A stretch of DNA of 32,679 nt from Basidiobolus ranarum (Eukaryota): positions 1 through 32,679 of the forward strand of contig JASJQH010006956.1 of the NCBI GenBank assembly GCA_040143965.1. Direction: 5' to 3'. The notes beneath the pieces were generated by a model. The model saw only the letters and a list, made by a program, of their open reading frames with translations, ran no database searches and was not told the DNA's origin. The translations under genes and the position numbers were made by a program. The number at the start of each line of letters is the position of its first letter. Positions within the stretch are counted from its first letter, which is position 1. Positions 5,483 to 32,679 of the stretch are shown here, piece by piece.

Positions 5483-5992
5483 GTACAAAGAGACATTCCC
5501 TCTCCCCTTATGTGTATAGTCATGGTAAAATAATGTATTTTCAAACTGTACCTTCATTATCGGCATCTGTTCAATCAATATTGGTGTGACTTGTCTTGCG
5601 CTGTCGTCGCGTCGATGTAATCCATTGAGCTAACCCTTTAGGATTGTCCTATCGAACTAATCATTCCAGAATAAAGAGCTATCTAAAGAGTATAGAAGAA
5701 AGGCGAGATATGAGTGAAGATCAGATTGGGTGGCGAAGTAAGCAATTGATATCCAGTTGATCCATCACCGAGAACTTAAATATATAGAACGTTCCGATGA
5801 TTAAAAGTTAATTTAATATTTCGATGATAATGAACCTCAATATTACTTGTATTCATGCTCCAACTATATACACGTTCTCTTACCTCTACCCTTTCAATCT
5901 TACTAATTAAATTAGTGTAAAGTTTGTTGATCCGATATTCTTTAAGCATCTTCTCTATGCCGAGATATCTCAAAGCATACTTTTGAGGGGAA

Positions 5993-21774: not shown

Positions 21775-21880
21775 AATCGAGTAGACAAATACACTAATGG
21801 TTTGAAGTGCAATCGAGTAGACAAATACGCTAATGGTTTGAAGTGCAATCGAGTAGACAAATACACTAATGGTTTGAAGT
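21775..21880. repeat. 36-bp head-to-tail tandem repeat, 3 copies (AATCGAGTAGACAAATACACTAATGGTTTGAAGTGC)
   Basis: Units 21775-21810, 21811-21846 (one A>G) and 21847-21880; no spacers. Confidence 0.95.
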
Positions 21881-22400
21881 CGTAACTCGATCCAAGTAAA
21901 ATAAACTCTTAAATTTAGTGATTTTTGGAAATGGTAATTCTTTTCACATGTTTCTTGCTAAATATGTTTACAAAACTGCCACTCGGTGATATAATGCCTA
22001 GCCAGAAAGTCTATCATGAGAGGCTGGACTATAAGAAATCGATAACTGGTTTGCACAGTTAATAACTAAGTAACATTGTTTGTATATAGATCCACAATGC
22101 CATTCAGTACTGCAGTGTTTATTAACTATGCATCATAAATGTAACACTACCGAGAATATAAATCCGAATTAATTAAATCCCGAAACTTGTACCTAGTTGC
22201 TTCTGTAGGGATTGTATCTCGCAAGTCACACCATATTGCGTGAAATTAGTAATAGAATACCAATGTCACAGTACAAATGCTGGATGCTTACAATAGTCAA
22301 CATACCTTGTATATTGAGGTTAGCTCTCATCTCTCGATTGAATACAGATATACCAGATATATAAGCTGGCTTCCATATCCTATTATCTCAACCAACTATC

Positions 22401-22592
22401 ATGAAGTTCTCTGCTCTCCGCGTAATCCTAGCTGTCATTACTTTGACAATTGCTGTTGAAGGCCAAACTGCTTGTAAGGATGCATGCTCCAGTACCACAA
22501 GTGCCTGTTTGTCCAGATGTCAAAAGGGTCAATACAACTGTAACTTATCCTGCATCAGCTATGGCAACTCTTGTCGCGATAGATGCACATAG
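22401..22592 (+). CDS. Small secreted cysteine-rich peptide, copy 1 (63 aa; 21-aa signal plus 42-aa mature peptide with 8 Cys)
   Basis: Signal peptide MKFSALRVILAVITLTIAVEG, eight regularly spaced Cys, TATATAA at 22358-22364, AATAAA downstream, and a conserved paralogue 1 kb away. Confidence 0.9.
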   Translation: MKFSALRVILAVITLTIAVEGQTACKDACSSTTSACLSRCQKGQYNCNLSCISYGNSCRDRCT

Positions 22593-23454
22593 AGTCATAT
22601 CGGTATATAGCTGAAAATAAAACTCACCGTTACTTCGAAAATGTTACATACGAGGTAAATCAACTTACTTGTATTACTATCATATCAGAATTCAATTGAG
22701 TGTTGATAAGTTCAGGCTTATATTCATATGTTCTCAGTTTATGTATTGCAATAAAAGGGGTTATGTTTCAACTCAGAGTCATCTTTGATATAAAAGAATG
22801 CAAGCAAACAACTGTGTTCATTACCCTAACCCTATATTATTTGGCCATAAGTAGCGATATAGTTAGTTGGTTTTATTAGTCCTAATTTTAAACCATACAT
22901 TGCGTTTGATTTGAAGGGTTAGGGAACCTTTGTTGCATTGCTTATTACTTTTCGTACTTAAGCATCAGTTATAAAAGGGCCTTACAACTTGGACTAATAA
23001 AACTTTCCTTTATTGAAGTGTATATATATTGTCCTTCAGCAGCACGAAATGCTCATTATTGTACTACAGATTATGACCTAGCATTTTATTCTCTAATTAG
23101 CCGTTGGGTCAAACATTCTTACACAAAAAACTGGCTTCTCAAGTACCTAGTCTTAGAGTGTAGCATGAGAGGCTAGACTTGAGAAAATATTTCTGAACTA
23201 AGAAATATTGGTTGTTACTGAATCACAATGCCGTTGAGGAATAATCAGTTATTAACAACACAGCATAAATGTAACATTAAGAACATAAATTCTTACTAAT
23301 TGAACTGTACTTTCCTAGTTTCAACAGCGAGCTTCCTTTCCTATTTGTAGTTATACATATGCCCCAACATTCATTATCCCGAGTACCTTGGTACAGATAC
23401 ACCAATATATAAACTGGTACTGACTTCCATATCGTATCATATCAACCACTTATC

Positions 23455-23646
23455 ATGAAGTACTCTCCTCTCCGCGTAATCCTAGCTGTCATTACTGTGG
23501 CCATTGCTGTTGAAGGCCAAGCCGCTTGTAAGGATGCATGCTCCAGTGCCACAAGTGCCTGTTTATCCAGATGTCAAAAGGGTCAATACAACTGTAACTT
23601 ATCCTGCATCAGTTATGGCAACTCTTGTCGCGATAGATGCACATAG
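23455..23646 (+). CDS. Small secreted cysteine-rich peptide, copy 2 (63 aa)
   Basis: 10 nt and 6 aa differences from copy 1, all Cys kept; TATATAAA at 23406-23413. Confidence 0.9.
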   Translation: MKYSPLRVILAVITVAIAVEGQAACKDACSSATSACLSRCQKGQYNCNLSCISYGNSCRDRCT

Positions 23647-24655
23647 AGTCATATCGGTATATAGCTGAAAATAAAGCTCACCAGCACACTGAAAGTGATG
23701 AACTAAAATAGATCACTACCATTATTATGTCATGGCTCAATTATCTTTACGTGAATTCCACTTTCAATTCATTGATGCAATGTGTAGAAAGTATTCATAT
23801 ACTTGTGGGTTGCGAATCATTGCATTCAAGACTTAGTGTAATAGTATCCTTCATTTTAATAAAGGGATCCATATAGCTTTGGTATGGCCATTGTTGAGGG
23901 CTAGATATCCATAATTGAAGTATAATCCACAAGTTCAATATTAAGGTTGCCATGTACACTGTTTACTTAACAGAAATGAGATCAGGATGTGATCATTATC
24001 AAATTGACAGAAACTGTCAGAGGACCAGCAAGATCATGTCCAGTCGTAATTTGTGGGATTAAATTAAGGAATCGTAAAAGTATTTTGAGGATATTCAGCC
24101 AGCTTTATGCCATATAATTCTATTCTATGCAAAACTTATTCTTTGCACTATTGCAACATTATATCACATTCATTATTAGTTAGAATTCTTCTATTTTGTA
24201 TACAGTTTTTAATTGTTAATGTTAATCAAATAAATTCACTCTGCTAATTCGATTATTCCAGTTATAATCCCAGTCAATGAAAAAATCTATCCACTCTTTT
24301 TTGTCTCCATATACGTGTATTCTTGGCTCAGTATGCAAAGCTCTAAAATTTCCATAAATTTCCCTTTCACAAACACCAAGAAGTTACTATATATACTGTA
24401 CCTTTTATAGCATATATAAGTTGCAAATAAACTATTTTATCTCACATCAGCACCATGATAAATTGTTGAACTTGTGCAAAAAGCTACCATATATTCAACC
24501 CAAACATTCCCTTCAAGATTCCCACGTATTTATAGTAGTAGTATTGAATACTTTGGCTGGAATAAATAACACCCCACAGGGTGGTGAAGAATCTAGCATT
24601 GTCAAGCAAAATATCATAAAGACATTGCCTTAGTTTCTCTGAATACAGGGTGAGA

Positions 24656-24970
24656 TATGTTAAAGTATTTGGGAGCCTGTTGAAAGTGGTTTGGAGAATT
24701 AGAGAAATTGGTGGTTTTCACTTATTGAGTTGATATTTATAGTTTTGTCCAGATGTAGACAAACTAGCGTGCAGAATGTGTTAATGAGGGTCCAAGAAAC
24801 ATGTGCGCAGAGTTTGGGGCTTCTAGTATAAGTTATCAAAATTTATATATCTTCAAACTTTTAAGTAAATTCCGATATCGAATAATGGGATATATCTTAG
24901 TTCAATATAGGATTACTAAATACTAAGCTATATATGACTATGTAGGTGTTTAGGTAATGCTAATTTCAGC
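24656..24970 (+). repeat. Dispersed ~300-bp repeat, copy A (probable non-autonomous transposon relic)
   Basis: Aligns by eye to 32035-32270 (only 2 mismatches in the first ~70 nt) and to 31371-31699; no credible ORF. Confidence 0.85.
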
Positions 24971-25638: not shown

Positions 25639-28600
25639 TTAGGCAGATCCCTTGGTTTTACTGCCCTTGGGAACACGGGCTAGCCAGTAGATGAACACCG
25701 CCGCGCCAATATTGAAGACGATGTATACCCACATGAGGCCAAAGTTGCGCCACGCATCCTTGTAGTAGCTAGACACTGAAGCCAGGAAGGTATCAGTTGA
25801 GGAAATGACGCAGAAGGAGCAGCTACCAGTGGCATTTGGGTCTAGCAGGTAGCCACCAGCATAGCTGATGTAGTTGGACATATACTCGCCACAGGTCATG
25901 TTACTTGGGGGATCGAAATGTAGGTACTCGACTGCTTCGCAGACCGCATTGGTACCGGAGACACCTGTCGAGAGCATTGCCGAGACCAGATATGTGAACG
26001 GTGAGACGCGGTACATGAAGATCCAGAATCCGGGTAGGGCTTCGGGAGTAGCGAGGACACCGCAAAAGATCAAGCATAAGGAGAAGAGTAAGTTGGCGAG
26101 ATTACCGCCGGTTTCGGCAAGTTCGATACCTGCGATGACCATATGTGCGAAGGTAGAAGTGAAGAGGAGGAAAGTCAGGATAAGCAGGAACATGAGGACT
26201 CCGCGCTCGCTCACGGCATTAGTGGGCTCAGCATTGTGGTACAGGCCGATGGGATAGTACCAGCAGACAAATATAAGGACCGCCATGAGAGTGTTCCAGG
26301 GAAGTTCAACAACAATATTTGCGGACATAAAGGCTTGCCAGGAGTAGGTCTTAGAGGGTCTCTCACGGACCTCGTACAACGAACGTTGAGTGCAGAAGTG
26401 GGGCATGATTTGTTGGACGAGGTTACCAAAGATGGTCATTAGCATGAAAATACTGAACATCTGGTTCTGAAGACCCTGGAGACTATTCTGTGAGTGGAAG
26501 AAGGAAAATCCGATGTACAAGGAAGTGAAGATGCAGAGAGCCGCCTTGGAGTAAATGTATACAGGGGTACGCCAATATTGCGAAAAGATTCGGACCAAGC
26601 ATTCATACAGCTGAATAGAGAAGGGGGCAGCAAATTCCTTGTAGCTGTCGTGATCGGAGGCAGAGTTTTCGATGGCCTTCTGAGGTAGTGTTAATTTCAG
26701 TTCAGCCAGGTGGTCAAGCACTGCTTTGTATTCAGGGCTATCACGCCAGACAGCAGGCCAGTCAATATCACTGTGGGACCCAGGAGCAGCACCAATAACA
26801 TCCAGCATCCATTCGGCGGGATTCGCATCGTCGGGGAGTTTAGGAGCACCGTTACGCTGGAAGTAGCTGGCAAGGGTGGAAGACTTCTCCCCAATCTCTC
26901 CGAAGTAGACGGTCCTTCCGCCCTTAGCGAGAAAGAGTAAGCGATCGAAACGTTGGAACAACATGGCAGATGGCTGGTGAATAGTGCAGAGGATTGCTTG
27001 ACCATGCTTGGCAAGAGTATCAATCAGATCAAGGATAGACCAAGAAGTCTGACTATCAAGCCCAGAAGTAGGCTCGTCCAGGAAGAGAAGCAGCTGAGGC
27101 TTAGCAGCGAGTTCTACACCAATAGTCAAACGTTTGCGTTGTTCGACGTTGAGACCCTCGCCAGGGACACCTACTACAGCATCGGCATATGATTCCATTC
27201 CTAAAAGCTTGATTACCTCTTCAACGTAGTCAAGCTTCTCTTGGCGAGGGACGTGTGCAGGCTGACGAAGAATGGCACTGAACCGAAGAGCCTCTCTGAC
27301 GGTAGTAGTATAAAGGTGAAGATCTTGCTGCTGTACATAACCTGTTTTTCTCTGGAAGGACTGATCGCGGGGTTTACCGTCAACCAACATCTCACCAGTT
27401 ACAACACCCATTGTAACACGTGTGGCCAAGACATCGAGAAGTGTTGTTTTACCAGCACCCGAAACACCCTGTAGAAGTCAGTAAAATATTAAAATAAAAT
27501 TGAAGGTAAAAGGACTCACCATAAGAGCAGTGCAAGTACCGGGCTTGACCCAACCATCAACATGGTCAAGGATTCGACGGGTCTCGTTCTTGATCTTGAT
27601 GTCGTAACACACATCCTGCCAATGGAAAATTGCCGTTTGTTTCTGGATCTTAGTTGACACTTCACCACCGTTGGAGTCACTTATTTTCTCAACAGAAGCT
27701 TGCTTTGGGTTGGCTTCAATGTCATCGGCATCCTTACCAACAGGCTGATGACCACGACGAAAGAGTAAGACCTCGCCCTTGGACTTGGCCTCCGAGATGT
27801 ATTCAGAAGCAAGTAGATAGGTGCACATAAAGAAGAACAAAAAAGCAAACATGATTCCCAGGTTTCTCCACTTGTGGCTGTTGTAGTAACGGAAGCTTTG
27901 GTGCAAATAGTTGTCTCCCAAAACAATATTGGAGCCAGCAACAGCGCCAACTGTAGAACAAATCTTGTTCTCCGGCGAGGCACTGATGTAGTCACCTCCA
28001 GAAGGAACGAAAACGGAGCATGGGAACGCCCGATCATGGAATTCGTTGACCATAAAACTCTCGAAAGCATACGCGATAGGGTCGATGTAGTTCATCCAGC
28101 GCGACCAGCCAAGCATGTTACGAGTTGGGATAGTGAAACCAGTGTATATGATCAGTCCTAATATAAGGATAGCTGCCGGCACCAAAGCCTGAGAGAGGGT
28201 GCGAGAAGTGGCGGCAATTGTACGAAAGATCATGGACATGGTCAATGTAGTCACAATGGAGAATAATAGGAACACGAAGAATGCACCTGGTTCACGACGA
28301 AGGTTGGTCATGAAGTAAAGCGTAATGTTGAATGTGATGGCATTAAGTAGCTTATATGGCAAGTCACAAATCATGGACGCAATGGCCTCGGCGAACGGAT
28401 GGTACATAGCATAACGAGTATGTTTTTCAACGATTGGACGTTGAACGTACAAGGTCAATATCTCGAGTGCACTAGAGAAAGCGTTAAGAAGGACCGCAAA
28501 GAAAAGCAGGGCACCACGGGAATAGAAACTATTAGTGTCATCGGTCAAATTATAGAAAACACTTCCAACAATCAATGCCATGATGAAGTTGCCGATCAAT

Positions 28601-30293
28601 TGGGTTAGGGTCAAGCTGGCATCGCCTCTCAAACGCTGGAAGCCACGGACAACGCAGAGTTTGACTTGATCCCAGACAGAAATGGTGTAAGGTGACTTGA
28701 CTCGCTGGTTCTTTGCTTGCATCGCCCTACGTGATTCAATGAACCTCTCCACGGATTCTCCACCAATCGGATACTTTTGCTCGTATTCCTCGATTTCCCT
28801 TATCAACTTTGCATAAGCATTACTGTTCTTCCAGGCAGCAGCGAACTCATCGGGCGTATTGGGGACTTGACCCCCGAATCCGGGCTTGACGATACGCTCT
28901 GAGGGGCTGGTAAGAGAGGTCAGGAAATCAGCGGTCGTCTGGCGTTCGGGGCATTCGAATCCCATAGTGGTGAAGAATTCTCTGGCTTCATCTGTACGAC
29001 CAAAATAGATCTGTCGCCCTTCATACAAAACGGTAACTTTATCGAAGACGTCATAGGCACTCTGAGAGGCCTGGTAGATAGCCACGGCGACTGTGGCGCC
29101 AGCATATTTAGACATCAAGTTCAGGGTCTTGCAAAATTCTAAGGCATTGGCACTATCCAAACCTCTGGTACTGTTGTCCCAGCACTGGATGGGGCTGCCA
29201 CTCAGTGCAGCTTCGGCAATACTGACACGCTTCCGCTCACCACCACTGACGCCACGAACGAAATCATTACCAACTTTAGTGTTAATAGTGTGCGAAAGAC
29301 CCAGCATGGCCATGACGACGTCTCTCATGTGCTCCGCATACTGTTGCCTAGTAACTCCGGGAAGACGATTGCGGGGGGCTCGGGCAAGAGCCGCGAATGT
29401 GAGGGTGTCTCCAACGGACAATTGTGGAAAATGGACATCAGTCTCTGCTGTGTATATGGCTTCACCACGGAATTGGTCTTTCATCTGTTTGACAGAGATA
29501 CCTGGATTCTTTTAGTTACGAGCAGCTAAAAATTGCTCACAGAGAAAACATACCTTGATAGTTGATGTGGGATTTCTCATCCAGGTGAATACCGTTCATC
29601 TCACCGGCAATGGTCTTGAGGAAGGTTGAGCAACCACTGGGGAGAGTTAATTTTGCGAGATTCAGAGTATAAACCAATGATTACATACCTGCCAGGTCGA
29701 CCCAGGACAACGAGCATCTCTCCGCTCTTGACGAGACCGTCGAAGTTATGAAGAATCTGAATCTTCTGCTTACCAGTACCAGTAATTGAACGGAAAAGGG
29801 TGCCGATCTCTAGAACAGAATTGGCAACATCTTTCTGATAATCCGTGGGACTACCGTAACCATGAACGCTGAGATTCTTGAAACACACACCTGCAGTTCG
29901 TTTAGGATATCTTTCTGGGTCCCGCGATTGAATGGTCAACAAGTTCTTCATCCAATTCTTGGGCTTAAAATTGGGATCATTAGGATTCAATGTCGAATCC
30001 TCATTCGATCCGATGAATGGGTTTTCAACCAGGTTATCAATAGAATATCTGGTTGACTGGCGGGTCAACTGACGTGCCAGACGAGTAACCTCCCCTAGAA
30101 TGATCTCTTCGCCTAGTACTTTTTCTGACTTATCGAAAACCGTATCGGCAGTGCACAGGCTGGAATCCAGTTCATGGGAGAAGTTATCCGAGTGCTGTTG
30201 TGATGCGTATTCCTCCACAGGCTGGTGGGCACCTTGGCCCCTGACAGTGCGTTCTACGTTCAAATTGGAATTAATCGTCCCTAACAGAGACAT
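25639..30293 (-). CDS. Full-size PDR/ABCG multidrug efflux transporter, 1499 aa, AbcG1/Cdr1B(AbcC)-like; exons 30293-29689, 29636-29554, 29501-27520, 27468-25639
   Basis: NBD1 has [22 protein letters not shown] and QCWDN; NBD2 has [24 protein letters not shown] and [12 protein letters not shown]; two 6-TM domains with PDR extracellular loops. Three 51-52 nt GT..AG introns give a 4500-nt intact CDS. Confidence 0.97.
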
Positions 30294-30317
30294 CGTTAAA
30301 GAGCGTAAAACGTTAGG

Positions 30318-30373
30318 CTTAAATTACTGAGTTAATGATGGGCTCCTTAAATTACTGAGTAAATGATGCGCTT
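30318..30373. repeat. 28-bp tandem duplication in the ABC transporter 5' leader
   Basis: CTTAAATTACTGAGTTAATGATGGGCTC followed directly by CTTAAATTACTGAGTAAATGATGCGCTT. Confidence 0.9.
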
Positions 30374-30873: not shown

Positions 30874-31370
30874 TGGGTTGTAACACTCATTAAATCACGT
30901 GGATTCATTGTCCGAAGATCAAAATAAGTGCGCATTATTTAGCTTTAAACTTTAGCTACGTGGAGAAATTTGATGGCATTTTTGATTTTACTGATTATAC
31001 TAAGCTATATGAGAGTATCCAATCATGTGCAATGGAGGTTTGCTTTGATTTGTGCCTAAATGTTATGCTATATTTTAGGAACATTGAATTTCATTCACTT
31101 TCATTATGCATGTGACTAATTCAAATATCACATCGTGGCTACCCTACGTTTATAAGTCGTTTATCCCTATGTTCAAGATAAGATCACCACTTGATATATA
31201 TGTTAAACATCCTGGAATTGCCAAGTAGAGTTAGAAATGTTAAACTAGTATTACTGGCATCAAAAGTAGCTCATTTCACTTTTACTGATGCTCTGAACAC
31301 AACCCCTTTTGTGGCTTGGAAAATAATTACAATATTTGCAATCACAATTCTTCCCCATCTGCTAGAAATC

Positions 31371-31699
31371 AGCCTGTTGGAAGTGGTGTGAGAAATCAAG
31401 AAATTGGTGCTTTTCACATATTGATTTATTGAGTAGAAAGTTGACTTATCTAGTTTTGCCAAGGTATAAACAAACTAGCATGCTGAATGTGTTTAAGAAG
31501 ATCCCAAGAGCATGCGCAAAGTTTGGGGCTTATAGCACAGGTTTGAAAAATCTGTATATTTGAGAACTTCTAAGTTGTTAGAAATATTAGAACTAAGTTC
31601 CAATTAGGAATAATGGATAATTTCTTGGTGAGATATAGTATAGCTTAGTACTCAGCTATATATAACCATGTAGGTGCTTAGGCAATGGTAATATCAACC
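31371..31699 (+). repeat. Dispersed ~300-bp repeat, copy B (more diverged)
   Basis: Shares AGCCTGTTG.AAGTGG, GAAATTGGTG, ACAAACTAGC, AGTTTGGGGCTT and ATGTAGGTG.TTAGG.AATG blocks colinearly with copy A. Confidence 0.82.
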
Positions 31700-32034
31700 C
31701 TCTCCCTCACCCAAATCGTCATATAAACTAATCTTAAGGAAGATCTATAAATATCAAATTTTGCCAAGCTAATAGTTTGGCAAATATATCAGCAATCATG
31801 TTTTCTGTAGAATAATAAGTTGAGTCATCAAATTTATCTTCTATAGTCTCTTTAATAAAATGATGTCTAATATCTCTATGTTGGCTAGTAGTATATAACA
31901 TTGGATTTCCACTTATGTTGATACTGTTACTAAGAGGATCTTGACATAATGGGGGTAGACTGTGTATATTGGAGGTTACTTATGATATTGCTTTTAGCTA
32001 CTTTATTATTAAGAGAATATGTTGCCCTGTTTAG

Positions 32035-32274
32035 TATGTTAAAGTATTTGGGAGCCTGTTGGAAGTGGCTTGGAGAATTAGAGAAATTGGTGGTTTTCAC
32101 TTATTGAATTATTTAGTAAAAGGTTGACATTTATAGTTTTGTCATGATATAAACAAACTAACATGTGGCATCTGTTAAGGAAGGTCCCAGAAGCATGTGT
32201 GCAAAGTTAGAGGCTTCTAGCATAAGTTTGAAAAATCTATATTTCTGAAATTTCCAAGTTAGTATCAATATTCT
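32035..32274 (+). repeat. Dispersed repeat, copy C, truncated by an LTR insertion at 32275
   Basis: Near-identical start to copy A; homology fades by about 32270, just before TGTTGA. Confidence 0.85.
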
Positions 32275-32679
32275 TGTTGACAGTCTGGTGACTTGTGGTA
32301 CAAGCAGTAATTCCCAAAGAGGAAAATATGGAGTATGGTGACTGCACCTGAACACAAAGTCCAAGGCCAATCAGTTGCTTGTATAGCTGACAAGCCAAAG
32401 TACCATACACTGACAGACTAGGTTAAGGTTCCCTAGCAATATAGGCATAGCATACAAGGACTGGTAGCTCAGTGGTTAGAGCACCTTGCTAGAGTGAGGA
32501 GGTCACAGGTTCAAATCCTGGCCAGACCAATATTTCTCCCTAAATAATTTCAATAGGTTATGAGCCCTGGTTGGTGCTAAATCCAGAAATCCTGCTTGAG
32601 GGGGAATGTTAGCAGGGGGATGAAAAGCACCACAGGGTGTAATCTTTATTTATCTCAAGTCATACAACACAAATAAACA
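32275..32679 (+). mobile_element. Miniature non-autonomous copia-type LTR element (TRIM) with a tRNA-derived segment in its LTR: LTR 32275-32555, PBS 32556-32569, PPT 32598-32606, next LTR start 32607
   Basis: Termini TGTTGA...TCAATA (one transition from TCAACA). GGTTATGAGCCCTG follows immediately and is complementary to the tRNAiMet anticodon arm (Ty5/copia half-tRNA priming). GAGGGGGAA then abuts TGTTAG. Confidence 0.75.
32458..32529 (+). pseudogene. tRNA-derived sequence (degenerate cloverleaf) with intact Pol III A and B boxes, inside the LTR
   Basis: GGACTGG/CCAGACC acceptor stem (1 mismatch), GCTC/GAGC D-stem, CCTTG/TGAGG anticodon stem closing only a 6-nt loop, CAGG-TTCAAAT-CCTG T-arm. 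A box TAGCTCAGTGG at 32465-32475; B box GGTTCAAATCC at 32508-32518. Confidence 0.85.

Follow-up and report, generated by a model that had tools for sequence, protein, structure and literature searches.

Gene content of the window and the adjacent Copia relic

The window, that is, the whole 32.7-kb stretch of DNA analyzed here, comprises an entire contig. Its genes are of fungal type according to Pfam and encode a formin, a family-2 peroxidase, VPS13, and a PDR-type ABC transporter. The peroxidase ORF shares 71% identity with a protein of Basidiobolus meristosporus, the next named matches having at most 41%, and the two best named matches of the VPS13 ORF are from Basidiobolus ranarum (45% and 43%). 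A protein atlas search returned generic ABC-transporter clusters only. The gene for the PDR-type ABC transporter (25639-30323, minus strand) is read as three stop-to-stop frames, two of which (27478-29511 and 25639-27477) abut in one frame, so that either a stop codon lies in frame or a short intron is present. Between the genes for VPS13 and the ABC transporter, an AT-rich stretch contains a 36-nt unit repeated three times in tandem (21775-21882) and a 278-nt direct repeat (91% identity, spacing 1054 nt, 22366-23697).

The minus strand of the segment 31375-32274 is occupied by an internally deleted Copia relic, in which the LTR copy c3 is followed by 57 nt, a pol remnant, a PPT, and the LTR copy c2 (Table 1). 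The pol remnant yielded 663 matches with E ≤ 0.001 (best 9.5e-21) in a full HMMER (phmmer) search of 1.84 billion representatives, and nine of the ten long relatives scanned carried Copia-type Pfam domains, RVT_2 being present in seven. The remnant ORF itself gave no match to Pfam or NCBIfam and none in a word-index search among longer proteins. A further LTR copy, c1, is located beyond the ABC transporter gene, which is thus bracketed by Copia-relic LTR copies of the same orientation. Matching 5-bp flanks around the bracketing copies were not seen by eye.

In the alignment of the LTR copies (A1), the homology of c3 to c1 and c2 ends at about 32271-32274, precisely at the start of a TGTTGA motif. 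Because the homology breaks where TGTTGA starts, the tRNA-bearing LTR described below begins at an insertion boundary. Judged from this alignment, the element to which that LTR belongs is inserted into an LTR of an older, internally deleted Copia relic. The termini of the relic (TGTTAAAG...TAATATCA on the plus strand) differ from those of the element, and a tRNA-iMet half-PBS of the element's type is absent from the adjacent relic. Because of these other termini and the lack of such a PBS, nothing marks the relic as the mobilizing partner.

Structure of the element at the contig end

The preliminary description had listed, in this order, TGTTGA, a tRNA-like unit with A and B boxes, a PBS, 28 bp of spacer, a PPT, and TGTTAG, and each of these parts was re-measured as claimed (Table 1). 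The motif TCAATA, which had been placed at 32555, is present as well, but 32555 is its last base. The tRNA-like unit occupies the 3′ third of the 281-bp LTR, and both boxes are intact. The interior, from PBS to PPT, measures 51 bp and is non-coding. The contig end falls inside the element, 124 nt past the 5′ LTR, and a repeat search of the 32.7 kb detected no second copy of the element in the window.

Table 1. Coordinates of the element at the contig end and of the Copia relic
Feature	Position	Strand	Description and basis
Target site, putative (ATTCT)	32270-32274	+	5 bp; deduced as the left insertion edge; a right duplicate would lie past the contig end
5′ LTR	32275-32555	+	281 bp, TGTTGA...TCAATA; sequence reading and re-measurement by script
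U3-like LTR segment, 5′ of the tRNA-like unit	32275-32457	+	labeled according to the Pol III start model
tRNA-like unit	32458-32529	+	72 nt; pseudo-tRNA with a 6-nt anticodon loop; ARAGORN, Rfam RF00005, box scan
A box TAGCTCAGTGG	32465-32475	+	box pattern scan
B box GGTTCAAATCC	32508-32518	+	box pattern scan
LTR tail, from the tRNA-like unit to the PBS	32530-32555	+	26 nt; TTT present, no T4 terminator-like run
LTR terminus TCAATA	32550-32555	+	read directly and re-measured
PBS GGTTATGAGCCCTG	32556-32569	+	14 nt; abuts TCAATA; complements the tRNA-iMet anticodon stem-loop (half-tRNA priming)
Spacer	32570-32597	+	28 bp, non-coding; script measurement
PPT GAGGGGGAA	32598-32606	+	abuts the next LTR start, TGTTAG (32607)
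3′ LTR-like piece	32607-32679	+	TGTTAG...; first 73 bp, cut by the contig end
Copia-relic LTR copy c3	32035-32274	-	repeat families D2-D4, alignment A1; broken at 32274 by the insertion
Pol C-terminal remnant, Copia-type	31734-31979	-	81-codon ORF between c3 and c2
Copia-relic PPT	31697-31712 (reverse complement)	-	precedes c2 in the minus sense; 3′ end of the relic
Copia-relic LTR copy c2	about 31375-31696	-	repeat search and A1; left boundary approximate, from A1
Copia-relic LTR copy c1	24656-24968	same orientation as the other copies	repeat search and A1

The tRNA-like unit and the primer-binding site

ARAGORN reported the unit as "tRNA-???" with no isotype and a 2-nt anticodon. The Rfam tRNA model RF00005 scored it at 48 bits versus a gathering score of 29 (E 9.6e-09), and the alignment to this model contained four non-standard pairs. 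The unit is a pseudo-tRNA. It is barely conceivable that a genuine host tRNA gene is present, next to which LTR elements have integrated in the manner of tRNA-targeting retrotransposons. An Rfam score exceeding the gathering threshold would suit such a gene, and Pol III genes are known targets of LTR elements, but the missing isotype, the 2-nt anticodon, and the non-standard pairs argue against it, as does the location of the unit inside TGTTGA...TCAATA, directly upstream of the PBS.

On the plus strand of the 32.7-kb window there is a single instance each of the A-box and the B-box pattern, and the PBS motif is found once when both strands are counted; all three are located within about 100 nt of one another. 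The boxes of the tRNA-like unit are the presumed internal Pol III promoter, an activity that we infer from their sequence. The anticodon arm of the host tRNA-iMet is predicted to read CAGGGCTCATAACC, the complement to the PBS.

With tRNA-derived SINEs (SINE2), the element has in common its non-autonomous nature and a tRNA-like head whose A and B boxes presumably act as an internal Pol III promoter. SINEs, however, possess neither LTRs nor a PBS or PPT and are moved by LINEs, whereas in the window a PBS and a PPT lie between LTR termini, and LTR terminus and PBS follow only 26 nt past the tRNA-like unit.

Relationship to Helenus and other known systems

Helenus (TRIMp3) denotes LTR elements of miniature size whose LTR contains a sequence derived from a tRNA (Kojima, 2024, Biology 13:119, PMC10886601). 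Their overall length is given as 311-1263 bp, and 5-bp target duplications are described for the fungal families. Copia families have similar PBS regions and are proposed to mobilize the elements, and the use of Pol III is deduced from the conservation of the A and B boxes. The only fungal hosts named are Pucciniales, with 113 families, and Agaricomycetes, with few; Basidiobolus and its relatives are absent from the host list (Kojima, 2024).

The Helenus consensus sequences were compared with the window by eye and by motif search, without an aligner. In both, the LTR carries a tRNA-like unit with its A and B boxes close to the 3′ end, and coding capacity is lacking. The rust consensus LTR-1_PGr in the supplement of Kojima (2024) reads tgttga...ttcaata, with an interior of ggttatgagccc...gggggaa, so that, by eye, its LTR termini correspond to the TGTTGA...TCAATA of the window. 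A PBS beginning GGTTATGAGCCC directly after the LTR and a very short non-coding interior ending GGGGGAA are likewise common to Helenus and the window element. They differ in that the window PBS ends ...CCCTG versus ...CCCAG in the rust consensus, that the window LTRs form a non-identical pair, that no T4 follows the tRNA-like unit, and that the interior of 51 bp is shorter than those of the references measured. The hosts differ too, the nearest to that of the window being Basidiobolus, compared with Pucciniales and a few Agaricomycetes in the published host list.

Most fungal Helenus families have a PBS for the tRNA-iMet anticodon loop, as in Ty5 and copia (Kojima, 2024, section 3.6), and the half-tRNA-iMet PBS of Ty5/copia type that the preliminary description had assigned to the element matches this account. 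Its broader proposal of a tRNA-bearing TRIM that is mobilized by Copia and akin to Cassandra and Helenus agrees point by point with the same paper and with the environmental elements treated below. A motif search of the Helenus consensus file returned no match for the PBS variant (as a 13- or 14-mer) and none for either of the two LTR starts. Generic tRNA-box strings gave 12 matches for the A box and two for the B box (Helenus-4_CroRib and Helenus-16_CroRib). No report of Helenus/TRIMp3-type elements in Basidiobolus was found among titles and abstract openings in the literature. The kind of element has thus been published before, and the family in the window appears to be new as far as motif searches and the host list can tell, in keeping with the suggestion made earlier of a new family in this lineage.

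Cassandra is also a TRIM with the promoter of a small-RNA gene inside both LTRs and is described as the only TRIMp3 with demonstrated transcripts (Kojima, 2024, Discussion). Its promoter module is 5S rRNA, whereas that of the window is a tRNA, and Cassandra is a lineage of plants. When 31000-32679 was scanned with Rfam at E ≤ 1, no 5S rRNA was matched; a tRNA was found instead. Ty5 of Saccharomyces cerevisiae and copia of Drosophila are primed from the anticodon region of tRNA-iMet, too (Kojima, 2024). Both differ from the window element in being autonomous, with gag-pol and with Pol II LTRs that contain no tRNA-like unit. The termini and the PBS string of Ty5 are presumably the same as those of the window element.

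Comparison with environmental loci

Metagenome contigs were scanned for a B box followed by GGTTATGRGCC 26-50 nt further on, which yielded at least 121 loci. The family-specific B-box string combined with the PBS pattern gave no match in the metagenome scan. An ARAGORN tRNA ending 8-45 nt before the match was present in 52 among the 121 loci listed, many of which are unrelated tRNA neighborhoods. The upstream DNA was repeated downstream in 17 among the 121 loci listed, and 16 of these 17 have the structure LTR-PBS-short interior-PPT-LTR. In these 16 reference elements, the LTR part comprises 97-324 nt with an LTR identity of 76-100%, and the interior 59-115 nt, except for one of 444 nt (L040); the 51 bp of the window are shorter than all of them. 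ARAGORN predicted a tRNA in each LTR in several of the scanned loci, for example, L005, L068, and L077. The interior of the relatives ends with ...AGGGGGCG or ...AGGGGGTTG before TGTT, and 5-bp duplications were visible by eye in several loci (e.g., AGCCC in L073 and AAAAA in L063).

A second alignment (A2) was built from the window and 15 Helenus-like loci picked by eye, 10 of which are among the 16 loci with an LTR pair and have interiors of 59-115 bp. All 15 loci can be aligned with the window over the entire stretch from the tRNA-like unit through a short tail and the LTR end to the PBS, and the identical 14-nt PBS GGTTATGAGCCCTG follows the LTR in six of them (L024, L025, L027, L071, L080, and L118). 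The best BLASTN match of the window element among the 121 loci listed was L027 (75.2% over 109 nt, E 1.9e-14, window 32463-32570), which covers the tRNA-like unit, the tail, and the PBS. The order of the modules in the environmental Helenus-type loci (L027, L024/L069/L073, L025, L068, L077, and L090) is the same as in the window, but their U3 part is unrelated to that of the window, and their LTRs are 76-100% identical, unlike the window pair. The U3-like segment 32275-32457 had no BLASTN match among the 121 loci listed and is not repeated elsewhere in the window. The distance from the B box to the PBS is 26-29 nt in the relatives versus 37 nt in the window.

The environmental contigs contain complete Helenus-type TRIMs at L005, L011, L024/L069/L073, L025, L027, L040, L063, L068, L077, L078, L090, and L118. 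These carry tRNA-like units in both LTRs and the half-tRNA-iMet PBS variants GGTTATGAGCCCTG and GGTTATGGGCCC. Such environmental sequences suggest that the group extends beyond the hosts on the published list.

The comparison with the relatives also concerns the termination of transcription. The preliminary description had pointed out that no run of four T occurs on the plus strand from 32275 to the end of the window, so that Pol III could read through. The absence of T4 is correct, 0 being found versus 1.44 expected from the composition, and 13% of the TTTT-to-TTTT gaps in the window extend over at least 405 nt. A run of T4 or longer is present between the B box and the PBS in 13 of the 15 relatives, whereas the window has TTT only. 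Read-through as a design is therefore not the norm of the family and misdescribes the build of the relatives. The lack of T4, being statistically unremarkable and contrary to the relatives, was dropped as a special feature.

The alignments bear on an alternative in which an independent tRNA-derived SINE or a tRNA pseudogene would have inserted by accident into the LTR of an ordinary Copia-derived TRIM or relic, the tRNA-like unit then being foreign to the LTR family. Helenus itself is proposed to have arisen originally from a SINE or tRNA pseudogene landing in the LTR of a TRIM (Kojima, 2024, Discussion 4.2), only one copy is visible in the window, and the 183 bp upstream of the unit match nothing, all of which would be compatible with such an event. 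Nevertheless, an accidental insertion is disfavored because the position of the unit is constant across the aligned loci: it occupies the same place ahead of the PBS in 15/15. By eye, the rust consensus has the same layout, the similarity to L027 continues through the tail into the PBS, and neither a SINE-type tail (A-rich or simple-repeat) nor a direct repeat flanking 32458-32555 is visible in the sequence. A chance landing is thus improbable. The element is probably a Helenus-type TRIM (TRIMp3) inserted in the LTR of the older, internally deleted Copia relic.

The PPT junction and the 3′ LTR-like piece

Nine purines followed by TGTT occur at two sites on both strands of the window, and such a junction within about 110 nt after the PBS would be roughly a 0.003 event by our own arithmetic. 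Because the combination is rare in the window, the junction 51 nt past the LTR is unlikely to be due to chance. The second site, at 5985, is ordinary sequence ahead of an ATG and was taken as a chance occurrence.

The paired LTRs of a TRIM can be compared in the contig over the first 73 bp of the 3′ LTR. Aligned ungapped from the start, the 3′ piece is identical to the 5′ LTR at 21 of 37 positions. The weak match reported in the preliminary description was reproduced by script, and the LTR mismatch is real. When TGTT is left out, positions 5-37 agree with the LTR start at 17 of 33 positions versus a random mean of 8.2 (P ~0.001). The 3′ piece was rejected as a copy of the 5′ LTR, since the local alignment scored below the shuffle mean and 892 of 1000 shuffles scored as high. 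A reading of the piece as a short LTR with an internal deletion and the terminus ACAACA at 32669 was likewise rejected (10/20 identical positions when anchored at the end, P 0.55). The last 10 nt as a resumed Copia LTR were dropped as a candidate, their length being insufficient to judge.

A weak resemblance between the two pieces and a contig that stops 124 nt past the LTR would also be expected if 32275-32569 belonged, as 5′ LTR and PBS, to a longer and perhaps autonomous Ty5-like Copia element with its body past the contig end and GAGGGGGAA-TGTTAG were a chance look-alike in its leader. The PBS type, which is that of Ty5/copia, would fit as well. Against this stand the rarity of the junction of purine run and TGTT, which is placed exactly as in the relatives, and the pairing of the 3′ piece with the interior described below. 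Instead of gag-pol after the PBS, a PPT and an LTR start are found 51 bp past the LTR. Between the PBS and the contig end, no frame is open throughout, the longest plus-strand frame (32581-32676) being closed by a stop, and the LTRs of autonomous partners are expected to be of Pol II type and to have no long stretch in common with those of TRIMp3 (Kojima, 2024). A longer Copia element is therefore highly improbable at this site.

The PBS and interior together with the 3′ piece (32556-32651) fold into a hairpin with an MFE of -36.8 kcal/mol (z -4.9). The duplex between interior and 3′ piece has a z of -3.2 (3/500 shuffles), compared with -0.1 for the interior and the start of the 5′ LTR. Just ahead of the PPT, the interior shows complementarity to the opening 15-40 nt of the next LTR, which places the PPT and the LTR start in a hairpin loop. 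Around the PPT of the reference elements, the stem had z values of -0.4 to -2.2 in eight of nine cases and +1.4 in one. Because the stem is weakly supported in the reference elements, the hairpin may be peculiar to the window copy. Its length in the window indicates that the interior and the 3′ piece belong together and that the 5′ LTR is the odd partner; the 5′ LTR may consequently derive from a sister subfamily.

Freshly transposed LTR elements have identical LTRs. The copy in the window is probably not intact, since the start of its 3′ LTR is unlike the 5′ LTR and the T-run after the tRNA-like unit is reduced to TTT. The LTR mismatch would mean that sister families have recombined in this copy, that the copy is old and damaged, or that the assembly made a join at the end of the contig. 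The 5′ LTR may accordingly have been acquired by recombination with a sister subfamily via the shared PBS/interior, or it may have been joined in the assembly. In the latter case, the assembler would have switched between two TRIM families sharing PBS and interior, so that the junction of the tRNA-bearing LTR with the 3′ piece would be artificial. The contig does stop 73 bp after the junction, inside repeat DNA, and the interior pairs with the 3′ piece rather than with the start of the 5′ LTR. However, genuine recombinant or heterogeneous elements would look alike, and we regard an artifact as possible but rather unlikely. It would touch the 3′ side only and leave the assignment of the 5′ LTR and PBS to a Helenus-type element unaffected.

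Proposed mechanism and implications

For the Helenus-type TRIM, the following mode of propagation is proposed, in line with the published Helenus model. TFIIIC and Pol III would use the boxes of the tRNA-like unit in the 5′ LTR, with the RNA starting near 32458 and the tRNA-like unit serving as R. From there, transcription would cross PBS, PPT, and the 3′ LTR's U3 and stop past the tRNA-like unit of that LTR. Gag, RT, and integrase would be provided in trans by a Ty5-like Copia element. The minus strand would be primed at the PBS by the 5′ half of tRNA-iMet and the plus strand by the PPT, and integration would generate a 5-bp duplication.

Speculatively, Helenus-type elements might not be confined to rusts and mushrooms but be an ancient lineage present across fungi and accompanying Ty5-like Copia elements. 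On this view, the homologous module of tRNA-like unit, tail, and half-PBS common to the window and the environmental contigs would speak for common descent or horizontal spread and against repeated captures of SINEs. In addition, the pairing between PBS/interior and the 40 nt at the start of the 3′ LTR could function as an RNA structure in packaging or strand transfer. Taken jointly, we consider these two ideas doubtful.

Within the 32.7-kb window, the element amounts to an ordinary relic of a mobile element at the end of the contig. For genome annotation, Helenus-type elements matter in that they inflate tRNA gene counts: most of the predicted tRNA-Thr, -Ser, and -Ala genes of rusts are stated to reside in Helenus copies (Kojima, 2024). 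If the family proves to be repetitive in the genome, the range of Helenus/TRIMp3 would grow from Pucciniales and a few Agaricomycetes to a fungus near the early-diverging Basidiobolus. Such an extension, if true, would bear on the question of a single versus multiple origin of Pol III-driven LTR parasites.
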